DNA from: an uncultured Cytophagia bacterium
Lineage (GTDB): Bacteria; Zhuqueibacterota; Zhuqueibacteria; Zhuqueibacterales; Zhuqueibacteraceae
Assembly: GCA_964447935.1 (NCBI GenBank)
Contig: CAYUVM010000001.1
Span: forward strand, 1-42,433
Length of the DNA: 42,433 nt
Direction of reading: 5' to 3'
The translations under genes and the position numbers were made by a program. The first letter of the stretch is position 1, and every line of letters begins with the position of its first letter. Below are positions 10,326-13,300 of this stretch, one piece after another. Under the pieces are notes generated by a model. That model was not told where the DNA came from. It searched no databases and saw only the letters and a program-made list of their open reading frames with translations.

Positions 10326-13300
10326 TTATCTCATCAACAACATCTTTCGCACCTTCACAAAATCACCAGCCTCGAGGCGATAAAAAAATACGCCCGAAGC
10401 CACTTGCACGCCGGCGTCACTCTTTCCATCCCATTGCACGCTGCGAATGCCTGCCTCTTGCACGGCGTTGATGACGATGCGCACTTTTTGGCCGAGCATG
10501 TTGTAGATCACCAGCTTCACATGCGACGACTTCGGCAAATCATAACGAAACGTCGTCGTTGGATTAAATGGATTCGGATAATTTTGATAAAGCGCAAAAG
10601 TCTTCGGCAGCTCAACGACATTGTCCGCAACCGAGGTGGCGTTCGGATCGATCATGACCGTGGCGTCGGCGGCGATTTTGAGCGGCTCGATGTTGCCAGC
10701 GTTGTCGGCGGCGAGAATGAAGAAGCGATAGGTGTTGCCGGGATCGCCGGAGAACACGAGGGAGGCGTCGGCGAGGTCGCTCTCGAAAAGTTCGAAAGGC
10801 TGGTTGTTTTCGGAAACGTACAAAGCATACGCGCGAATCTTGGAGCCGGCGGCGGCGTCCTGGCCGGACCAGCGCAAAGTGAACGTGGTGGTGTTAATCG
10901 TGGCCGGCAAAGCTGCGATGCGGCTACTGGGAATCAACGCATCGACGGTATTGAAAATCTCCGGTGTGTCGATCGGCTCGTTGGTGTCGAACACGATACT
11001 CGCTTTGGCACGCACCACCTCGCCGGTCTTGGCAGTGTTTCTGGGACGGATGGTGTAATTCGCAAAACCTTCGCCGCGATGTTGCGCGTTGTTCACCGGC
11101 AAAAATCCGTTGAACACCGGCAATTGGCCGGTGGCGGGATCGATAGCGCGGAAAATCCAAAACGCTTCGTTGGTGGTGACGTCGAGGCCGGCGTTGACGT
11201 CCACGAACACGCCGAGCGAATCGCGCACGTCGAGGCGCGTGCTGTAAAATGCGCGGTTCTCCGGCACGGTGAAAGAGCGATTGGAAAAACCAAAATTGCC
11301 GAGGCGGAAACTGCGGCTGTCGAGCGTGCTATCAAGCTTCTGCCGAATCGTCACCACCTGCGCCGCGGCCGTGGCTTTGGTGGAATCATTCTCGAAGCGG
11401 ATGGTGTAAGGCAAGGTCTGCGTTGCGGTGATCCATCGCTCGTCGCCGAAGCCGGCTGGGCCGGTGATGTCGTTGGGGTCGATGGCTCTCTGCACTGGAA
11501 TTTCAAAACACTTTGAACCGGGAGCACAGGGGCGATCTTTGGGAGCAGGTGGCAGGGGATCAACAGGAGGGTAATCTGGTAAAGAGCCTCCTCCACCTTT
11601 ACATGCTTCTGCTTGCGCATCTTCAAAAAAAGACTCACCGAAAATCACCACCCCGCTATAATATACTATTGCTACTCCTTTGCAGATGTCAAATTCCAGT
11701 CCGTCAGCGCCAAATACTGAGCGACAGGACGAAATCATTGCATTCAAGAAAATCAAGTCACAAATAATTTTTTCGCTGCCACAAAAATCGTAACACGAAT
11801 CATGAATCAAACAAGACGATGAAAATATCAAATCAGGTACGCATGAACAAATGCCGTCATAAATCCAATTGATCGGACATTCATTTGCTGAGTTAGTATT
11901 GCCGGGCAACAACGCCTGTATTGGATTATTGATGTCCAAATTTACCAATGTCCTAAACAACTCAAACCGAAGCTCTCCTTGCACCTTTGAGTATATTGTT
12001 ATTGAACCACGGACACCGGGCCGCAAATAATCTCGCGGCCCCTTTGGTTCTCGATAATCCGTGTAAAGGCTGTGAAACTTATACTTCAAATGATCTGGAG
12101 AATACCCAATTGACGCTCCTGATAAGCTGGCTACAATACTACTTGAACGTGGAATATCAATATTGCCAGCGTTCATAAAATCGATTGTTACAGAGACAAT
12201 TTGCCCCTCACGCGCTGCTGATGGAAATTGCACTTTGGTGACTAACAGTTCTTCAGTACCAGGTACGACCTCGAAGCCATTCAATAAAGAAACCATTTTT
12301 CCAGATTGAGTTTGCACACTCAGATCGTAAAAACCCAACACCGCGCCATTCAAATTGAATGAAGCAAATGCTTTTGTTTGATCAACAATAAGCAGGTCAT
12401 GAGCAAGGATTGTCGAGTTCCCTTTTTTTAAAGTTACCGTCATACTGTTGTCGAACTTTGCACCGAGCAATTGTACCGTTACCTGCCCCGTGTTGCCTCC
12501 AACTTTAGAATCCACCAAATGAATCGCAAACGCCAAGCTATCCGCCTTCAAACTAAACGCGGCTTTCACACTACTTTGTGAGCGGCTGCTCAACAGCAGA
12601 AAGTATTTTCCAATTTGCGACGACGGAATTAAAACTTGTTGAGTGGCTTTCTGTGGCTCAATCGAAGCAAAATCATAGTCATTCAAAGTTGGCGTGCGCC
12701 CGAAGGCCACGTACAACTCATTCGCTGCCGTGCTGTCGCTGTTTTGTAAATCGAGTTGAATGGTCGCGCCGGTTTCGCGTGATTCCAGTTTATAATATCG
12801 TTTTTCTTCCGCGGCCAACATTCCTGTCACCGGCACGCCCAACTTCAATTCCTGCACATCCGTATCCATCAACGCCGCCGAAGCCAAAGCATTATTCGCC
12901 GTGTTGGTCTCGCGAATATTGCGGCGAATGTCCGTGCGCACAATGGCGTGATATTTTCCGGGGGTGACGCCGGGCAATTCGGCGGTGATATTGCCTTCGG
13001 CGTCGGCGCGGAAGAGTTGGGCGAGATTGACTTTCATGCTGATCTGCTGCGAGCCGCCGGGCGCAATGTCGATGTTATGCGTGAGCACGCCGAAGAGCGG
13101 GTCTTCCACCTGCCAAATTGTATCGGCGGAAATATACGCGGCCTCGCGCAAACGGCCAGTGGCGCGGTTGGCGCCGATGTTTTTGAGGGTCCATTTGATG
13201 GTGGTTTCCTCGCCGGGCATAGCGTTCGCGGGAATGATGATTTGGCTCACGATCAAATCCGCGGGCGCGGGTTGGATGATCTTGATGGGCTTCACGCGGG

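Follow-up and report, generated by a model that had tools for sequence, protein, structure and literature searches.

A divergent phospholipase A2-like domain inside a giant protein with a type IX sorting domain from an uncultured Zhuqueibacterota bacterium

Introduction

Can a cysteine-rich segment of 93 residues, embedded in a giant protein that bears the marks of type IX secretion system (T9SS) cargo, be a genuine secreted phospholipase A2 (sPLA2), and what would such a domain be doing there? The question is raised by a stretch of 42,433 nucleotides from an uncultured Cytophagia bacterium of the Zhuqueibacteraceae, phylum Zhuqueibacterota (assembly GCA_964447935.1, contig CAYUVM010000001.1, positions 1 to 42,433 of the forward strand), which is referred to here in its entirety as the window. 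A previous reading made from the letters of the DNA (the sequence-only reading) had described a Cys-rich segment of 93 residues with ten Cys and the motif C-L-I-H-D-S-C-Y, followed downstream by a C-D. Translation of the minus strand at 11601-11879 returned exactly those residues, CPINWIYDGICSCVPDLIFSSSCLIHDSCYDFCGSEKIICDLIFLNAMISSCRSVFGADGLEFDICKGVAIVYYSGVVIFGESFFEDAQAEAC, with the ten Cys, the motif at 11790-11813 (-) and the C-D at 11757-11762 (-), so that the description stands. Translation of the plus strand over 11601-11879 is interrupted by many stops.

The segment lies in a gene termed gene A here, which is contained in a single unbroken open reading frame (ORF) at 10326-18005 (-) with TTG at 18005. 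The likely start of the gene is the ATG at 17966 (MSKRLF...), which places gene A at 10326-17966 (-) including the stop codon and gives a product of 2546 amino acids, identical to database protein P0001 and furnished with domains by Pfam and NCBIfam. Two numberings are in use, one counting from the TTG at 18005 (ORF numbering) and the other being that of P0001, which equals the ORF numbering minus 13; in the latter the segment comprises residues 2030-2122. Sequence profiles and a structural model support the assignment of these residues as a true sPLA2-fold domain, closest to group XII (PLA2G12) and more distantly related to microbial group XIV. We further consider it probable that this domain is exported by the T9SS on a long stalk, cleaves the phospholipids of foreign membranes and sits in an exchangeable slot of its carrier.

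Identity of the cysteine-rich segment

Chance is excluded as the origin of the motif and of the clustering of cysteines. Ten of the 21 Cys of the whole protein fall inside the 93-residue segment (binomial P about 1e-9), and the pattern C..HD.CY, for which about 4e-6 occurrences are expected, was met in 0/20,000 shuffles of the protein. When scanned alone, the 93-residue module matched the Pfam family PF06951 (PLA2G12) with an E-value of 4.4e-7 and 30.5 bits (30.5-30.9 bits and E 3-4e-7 across runs), the match spanning profile positions 99-174 of 184 and leaving the N-terminal half of the profile unmatched. A second match was obtained with PF09056, the prokaryotic PLA2 family of group XIV, at an E-value of 0.013 and 16.5 bits. 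A word-indexed homologue search with the module gave no candidates, and a single-sequence search of the module against Protein Data Bank (PDB) sequences returned no PLA2 and one noise match only.

Exhaustive HMMER scanning with the module, done among 1.84 billion representatives, recovered 770 relatives at E <= 1e-3, and an alignment of the best 150 of these was used for counting conservation. The active-site Cys (query position 35) and the catalytic His are present in all 150, the Asp that follows in 149, the Tyr in 148 and the downstream Asp in 146. Likewise, at least 139 of the 150 retain each of C41, Y42, C52, D53, F56, C64 and C78, C105 is kept in 137 of the 140 sequences where the position is occupied, and, taken as a set, the seven further Cys positions beside the active-site Cys are each conserved in at least 130 of 150 where occupied. 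Every one of these conserved residues is retained in the copy of the window, and the pattern C..H[DN].[CG][YWF] is matched by 150/150 relatives.

A set of 44 representative relatives was taken for the Pfam scan and for building a family profile. PF06951 was matched by 43 of them, the best at 4e-29, and PF09056 by 37, and several relatives passed the gathering cut-off of PF06951 (P0081 with 54.7, P0041 with 51.9 and P0088 with 42.2 bits). Searched against the PDB, the family profile returned only microbial and classical PLA2 chains, among them the enzymes of Tuber borchii (4aup) and Streptomyces violaceoruber (1faz), both with an E-value of 1.9e-12, and, with E-values near 1e-9, 7ygk and 8k1w. 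The H-D columns of the family fall over His64-Asp65 of 1faz in this profile alignment, and its C-D column falls over the Ile-Asp of 'SRIDSAF', residues 84-85 of 1faz counted from the printed chain start; Asp85 of 1faz is the partner of the catalytic His. By conservation and by this alignment, His2055 in the C-L-I-H-D-S-C-Y motif is predicted to be the catalytic histidine, with Asp2056 as Ca2+ ligand and Tyr2059 beside them, and Asp2070 of the downstream Cys2069-Asp2070 is predicted to be the partner of the catalytic His.

Predicted fold and calcium loop

An AlphaFold2 model of the module, built on the alignment of its relatives, has a mean predicted local distance difference test score (pLDDT) of 81, rising above 94 in the core (model residues 30-108). 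The modelled chain is a four-helix bundle in which helix 32-42 bears the His-Asp-Tyr set, with the partner Asp on helix 49-68 that follows. In a Foldseek comparison with the PDB, the Tuber borchii PLA2 (4aup) stood first with a probability of 1.00 and a root-mean-square deviation of 2.5-2.9 over 70 columns; the matches below it were noise, which makes 4aup the sole credible match. The predicted module can therefore be said to have the helical core of the PLA2 fold, with the helix pair that carries the His-Asp and the downstream Asp in place. The sPLA2-like identity proposed by the sequence-only reading is thus supported by the profile matches, by the relatives with their conserved catalytic residues and by the model, and none of the three checks that it had named, on PLA2 profiles, on the persistence of His-Asp among homologs and on the fold, went against it.

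The calcium loop is the deviant part of the module. Two loop forms occur in the family, a long one, N-G-C-G-x(n)-[VI]-P-[DN], and a short one, [ND]-G-C-[ST]-x-V-P-D, whose Cys sits 12 residues ahead of the active-site Cys; 16 short-loop relatives set this register. The copy of the window has the short form, Y-D-G-I-C-S-C-V-P-D at 11832-11861 (-), which aligns with N-G-C-T-x-V-P-D of the relatives and with D43-L44-C45-T46 of the Streptomyces PLA2. Because the register is fixed by the distance to the active-site Cys, 'GICS' is taken as the true loop counterpart. An alternative placement by MAFFT, with the 'NEC' of the window under the 'NGC' of the family, was ruled out by the same distance. The sequence-only reading, which had seen no clean calcium loop and only YDGICSC upstream, was accurate on this point, the stretch being a divergent counterpart of the short family form.

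Similar variation of the loop is found in the relatives P0036 and P0078. Two extra Cys, that of 'NEC' and the second of 'CSC', are common to the copy of the window, P0036 and P0062, and from this we infer that they may form a fifth disulfide beyond the four that are conserved in the family.

Host protein and predicted export

The product of gene A is composed, in this order, of a signal peptide, a Laminin_G_3 domain, a DUF642/choice-of-anchor C domain, about eight CARDB Ig-like domains (eight matches), further immunoglobulin (Ig)-like domains, the PLA2 module, a linker, DUF7619 and a type A sorting domain. The N-terminus encoded at 17892-17966 (-), MSKRLFILILTVTTIIIFCGNLLAQ, reads as a signal peptide of the Sec type. 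Immediately after the module comes a Gly/Pro-rich linker at 11526-11600 (-), KGGGGSLPDYPPVDPLPPAPKDRPC, which marks the module as an independent domain. A conserved region that includes DUF7619 (Pfam PF24595) follows at 10581-11525 (-), delimited also by its identity to the adjacent paralog described below, and the C-terminus is formed by the T9SS type A sorting domain at 10338-10580 (-). The latter matches TIGR04183 with 40.9 bits against a cut-off of 23 (E 1.5e-10), and weaker matches to the Pfam families Por_Secre_tail and CHU_C fall on the same C-terminus. With a signal peptide-like N-terminus and a sorting domain above the curated cut-off, the protein has the sequence features of predicted T9SS cargo.

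DUF7619 has been described as a predicted CnaA-like Ig stalk domain with an intramolecular isopeptide bond (PMC12617251). Together with the sorting domain it also occurs in free-standing proteins of about 500-550 amino acids that start with a signal peptide. The closest public relative of this DUF7619/sorting region is P0151, with 73 % identity, from a metagenome-assembled genome (MAG) of candidate division KSB1, and homologues of the sorting domain belong to Ignavibacteriota, Calditrichota, Marinimicrobia, Zixibacteria and KSB1, which makes an uncultured bacterium of the Fibrobacterota-Chlorobiota-Bacteroidota (FCB) group the probable source. A contig scan with the C-terminal 560 amino acids yielded 80 loci of the FCB group, none of them with the PLA2 module, the scan being dominated by the YQNYPNPF pattern of the sorting domain.

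At least three neighbouring genes, the paralog included, have sorting-domain ends, and the gene downstream of A encodes a 709-residue repeat protein with a sorting domain of its own. Since neighbouring proteins end in T9SS-type tails, the region can be regarded as rich in T9SS cargo; no T9SS core genes are present in the window. Among the neighbours, T9SS-type tails (...TRKMLxVR) are present on the protein at 8075-10204 (-) and on the product of the gene at 29452-30591 (-), and two long proteins (3824-5632 (-) and 8075-10204 (-)) are built of repeats such as 'GGVFRSxDNGxSWTAVNxGLT'. Farther along, tandem paralogs at 36054-36782 (-) and 36926-37594 (-), of 242 and 222 amino acids and no obvious function, each contain an internal duplication of a motif like 'AAELTARYQE...GGFFGKQAIQKLLD...GLRFCFG'.

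Carriers of related domains

The relatives of the module are found in proteins of three kinds. The first are small secreted proteins, 105 of the best 150 relatives being no longer than 300 amino acids. In a second group the domain forms the extreme C-terminus of RHS-repeat proteins (P0043, P0085, P0109, P0113, P0149, P0074 and P0076), where, as read from the sequences, it is often preceded by a junction of the D-P-x-G-L type; polymorphic toxins classically have this format. A third group repeats the arrangement of gene A, with an internal PLA2 followed by DUF7619 (P0005, P0008, P0036, P0062 and P0067, in each of which a T9SS sorting domain is called, and P0010). A variable N-terminus, PLA2, DUF7619 and sorting domain form a recurring architecture: at least six other public proteins share it, and the sorting domain is called in five. 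The NCBI label of P0067, from a MAG of Flavobacteriales, reads only 'T9SS type A sorting domain-containing protein'. The sequence-only reading had proposed a lipolytic effector on a T9SS scaffold and had called it an unusual delivery format; the scaffold setting is upheld, and the word unusual calls for some moderation in view of this recurrence and of the PLA2 tips on large carriers that were described in 2012 (PMC3482391).

P0010 is a fragment, produced by gene calling, of an A-like gene in locus L085, which has the PLA2 in the same slot. In this locus (5400-7180, GCA_973468445.1) the PLA2 module is 38 % and the DUF7619 region 62 % identical to A, and two in-frame stops stand where A has Arg and Tyr; the A-like gene is either a pseudogene or affected by assembly errors.

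Directly after RHS-PLA2 genes, small polytopic membrane ORFs of 112-132 amino acids are found in three loci (L087 at about 7700-8090, L088 at 4719-5117 and L089 at 8475-8813). Two of the three are homologous (31 % identity, E 7e-14), and we regard these ORFs as candidate immunity proteins. In the 2012 catalogue of toxin domains, no immunity protein is listed for Tox-PLA2 (PMC3482391).

Site of the module and the adjacent paralog

Immediately upstream of gene A lies its paralog, gene B (18069-29279 (-)), which encodes 3736 amino acids comprising beta-helix repeats, a CARDB stalk, DUF7619 and a T9SS sorting domain. Both flanks of the site at which the PLA2 module sits are common to A and B: in ORF numbering, residues 681-2005 of A are 56 % identical to residues 1780-3098 of B, and residues 2141-2559 of A are 71 % identical to residues 3319-3736 of B. 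Between these flanks gene B carries a Cys-rich insert of about 220 amino acids (19326-19985 (-)), that cannot be aligned to A; the G+C content at third codon positions (GC3) is lowered here to 0.43-0.50, less than in gene A. No Pfam match and no homologues were detected for this insert, and a single-sequence AlphaFold model of it was uninformative (pLDDT 33).

In gene A, the PLA2 module and about 180 residues upstream of it belong to a block of foreign codon composition at 11526-12425 (-), residues 1861-2160 in ORF numbering. GC3 is 0.32-0.47 in this block vs 0.62-0.83 in the rest of the gene and its stalk, and the identity of A to B within it falls to 17-39 %. At residue 2161, GC3 returns to 0.68-0.78 exactly where the identity of A and B rises to 82-95 %, and in the flank after the slot the two genes are 84.6 % identical in DNA over 922 nucleotides. 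The low-GC3 block of A measures 900 nucleotides and lies between flanks at 10581-11525 and 12426-15965. The mosaic of composition points to recombination or gene conversion, with 'PVQRAIDPNDITGP' as the junction.

A third occupant is found in L081, a KSB1-related metagenome contig (9400-11566), where a B-like stalk gene of 2440 amino acids stops exactly at the slot junction and is followed by a separate ORF with its own signal peptide, an unrelated module of about 250 amino acids, DUF7619 and a sorting domain. Since L081 is split at the junction, the stalk and the module-anchor unit can be separate genes. The carrier is thus conserved and the insert variable, A, B and L081 having both flanks in common and three unrelated inserts. 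In P0155, P0156 and P0158 a hydrophobic Cys-rich segment, for example '...C.DFF..LGC.AA..DCFI..P...', stands just ahead of DUF7619 and perhaps represents a further kind of slot occupant. The slot occupants of L081, P0155, P0158 and P0160 gave no Pfam match.

Taken from the sequences, this pattern fits an exchange of cassettes at a fixed junction; a dedicated mechanism is not proven by it. As a tentative extension, and one that we hold to be rather doubtful, the junction upstream of DUF7619 and the sorting domain could be a dedicated recombination slot, the T9SS counterpart of the toxin tip of RHS and contact-dependent inhibition (CDI) proteins, in which cassettes would be swapped internally with the highly conserved 'DPNDITGP...' flank as homology arm and with effectors that lack dedicated immunity genes. 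The cassettes would then be the PLA2 of A, the orphan module of about 220 residues of B, the third module of the KSB1 relative and the hydrophobic Cys-rich modules of other DUF7619 proteins. Such carriers must end in their secretion signal, which leaves only an internal position for the module.

Comparison with known phospholipases and toxins

Among curated families, group XII gives the highest score with the module and with 43 of the 44 representative relatives. The core C-x-x-H-D-x-C-Y-x-x-C-G-x-x-K-x-x-C-D is held in common, both are Cys-rich, secreted and all-alpha, and the spacing from His to Asp is the same in the human group XII sequence as in the module. The module departs from group XII in its score below the cut-off, in the unmatched N-terminal half of the profile, in the loop region and in its location inside a bacterial surface protein of 2546 amino acids, whereas group XII enzymes are free proteins of roughly 190 amino acids (the profile has 184 positions). 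We know of no solved structure of group XII.

The group XIV enzymes of S. violaceoruber (1faz/1kp4/1lwb) and Tuber borchii (TbSP1, 4aup), represented by PF09056, are the only solved structures that are strongly reached by the family profile. They share with the family the His-Asp and the downstream Asp, a D/N-x-C-[ST] loop ahead of the active-site helix and an A-x-x-Y-Y-x-A-V-x-x-F-G helix. However, the group XIV motif is H-D-F-G-Y, without a Cys after His-Asp, the aligned stretch contains fewer Cys, and His and Asp are 21 residues apart in group XIV and 15 in the module. Group XIV PLA2 has two disulfides. Its members are free-standing enzymes of about 120 amino acids, and the module reaches PF09056 only at an E-value of 0.013.

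Among bacterial toxins the nearest parallel is Tox-PLA2, a PLA2-fold toxic module of very large secreted proteins from hosts that include Bacteroidetes and Chlorobi, described from RHS or filamentous carriers that end in it and are exported by type II or type VI secretion systems (Zhang, Aravind et al. 2012, PMC3482391). The module of gene A resembles it in being a PLA2-fold module on a very large secreted protein and in having RHS C-terminal tips after D-P-x-G-L-type junctions as close relatives. The published signature of Tox-PLA2 (DxC[ST], CxxHxxxYxN) is matched only in part in the window, by D-G-I-C-S and C-L-I-H-D-S-C-Y-D-F. In contrast to Tox-PLA2, the module is internal, the 424 residues between it and the C-terminus including DUF7619 and the T9SS sorting domain, it is borne on a CARDB stalk, and no immunity gene lies immediately downstream of gene A. 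A variable toxin on a conserved carrier is a feature of polymorphic toxin systems, and the three inserts of A, B and L081 on a common carrier show this organisation. The TANFOR polymorphic toxins of Bacteroidetes, large proteins with swappable toxin domains and a proposed export by the T9SS, are comparable in being large, in their swappable domains and in coming from T9SS-bearing bacteria, and no PLA2 is mentioned among them (Jana et al. 2020, PMC7073777). Unlike these, gene A has no TANFOR domain in Pfam and NCBIfam scans, and it combines an internal module with a type A sorting domain where TANFOR proteins have a C-terminal toxin and no canonical sorting domain.

Proposed mechanism and alternative explanations

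In the mechanism that we propose, His2055, held by Asp2070, would activate a water molecule, and Asp2056 together with the upstream loop would bind Ca2+; glycerophospholipids of a foreign membrane would have their sn-2 acyl chain cleaved off. The four family-conserved disulfides, with the extra one suggested by the count of Cys, would stabilise the domain outside the cell. Export would begin with the Sec pathway, followed by folding and oxidation in the periplasm and by T9SS passage over the outer membrane via the C-terminal sorting domain, after which the PLA2 would be displayed on, or released with, the long stalk of CARDB and Ig-like domains. The N-terminal lectin-like domains (LamG and DUF642) could bind the target, with the stalk giving reach.

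Several observations weigh against this account of an active, membrane-attacking enzyme. The profile scores lie below the gathering cut-offs of both Pfam families (30.5 against 34 bits for PF06951 and 16.5 against 29.4 bits for PF09056), and for this reason the module is to be called a divergent PLA2G12-like domain and not a curated member; an NCBIfam scan found no match inside the module. The Foldseek E-value of 0.26 is weak and the TM-score reaches only 0.47. In the calcium loop, the site two positions ahead of the loop Cys, usually Asn or Asp, is occupied by Gly, an Asp directly precedes it and an extra Cys is present, and this stretch is modelled at a pLDDT below 65; with a deviant loop and a low-confidence model, Ca2+ binding and hence activity are not assured. 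The candidate immunity proteins of the RHS-PLA2 loci have no match in the window, and no immunity-like gene adjoins gene A or is found in three other T9SS-type loci. The producer would have to protect itself by some other means while such a PLA2 folds in its own periplasm ahead of T9SS export.

These observations bear on three other explanations, the plainest of which, that the segment resembles a PLA2 by chance within a generic Cys-rich spacer, could appeal to the empty word-indexed search and to the single-sequence PDB search without a PLA2. It is refuted by 770 relatives with the same set of motifs, a family profile that reaches PLA2 structures at 1.9e-12, the near-universal match of the representative relatives to PF06951 and the outcome of the shuffling and clustering statistics. 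Improbable, in our estimation, is a PLA2 fold that is catalytically weak or dead and serves in binding membranes or ligands, like the Lys49 myotoxins or the otoconin-type PLA2-like proteins. The deviant loop with its Gly, the extra Cys pair, the sub-threshold scores and the low confidence of the modelled loop would all suit such a protein; against it stand the retention of the His, both Asp, the Tyr, a conserved Lys and all eight conserved Cys, and the fact that other DUF7619-bearing or short-loop relatives vary similarly in the loop yet keep His-Asp. A Gly in the loop does not by itself speak against activity, since most Ca2+ ligands in classical sPLA2 are backbone carbonyls.

The possibility that the PLA2 is active and serves nutrition or housekeeping instead of acting as a toxin has to be taken more seriously and is, in our view, unlikely. 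The enzyme would serve to obtain fatty acids from membranes and vesicles of environmental or detrital origin, or to remodel the surface or vesicles of its own cell, as one more T9SS-displayed hydrolase in the manner of chitinases or proteases. T9SS cargo in the FCB group very often consists of degradative enzymes, LamG and DUF642 suit the binding of a substrate as well as that of a target, the genes nearby include other sorting-domain cargo and no toxins, and adjacent immunity genes are missing here and in the three other T9SS-type loci. On the other side, the same domain family tips RHS toxins with candidate immunity proteins directly downstream, and the cassette-like turnover and foreign codon usage of the slot are typical of conflict genes rather than of metabolic ones. 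A T9SS-exported sPLA2-fold domain directed at foreign membranes from an exchangeable slot is therefore the explanation that we favour as probable.

Conclusion

Overall, we propose a function for a stretch that current annotation leaves blank. The literature search returned no description of a PLA2 on T9SS cargo or of bacterial PF06951; the arrangement of the module is an unsurprising combination of known parts, and several public sequences already show it. Large bacterial carriers with PLA2 toxin domains were known from 2012 onwards, and current understanding is not overturned. The comparisons indicate that a group-XII-like PLA2 domain is used by uncultured bacteria of the FCB group not only on RHS toxins but also on T9SS cargo. 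If the domain is active, the T9SS, to which the export of adhesins and degradative enzymes is usually ascribed, would have a further use in the display of a membrane-attacking enzyme on a long stalk, and the architecture of the slot would suggest how effectors are exchanged when the C-terminus is the secretion signal.

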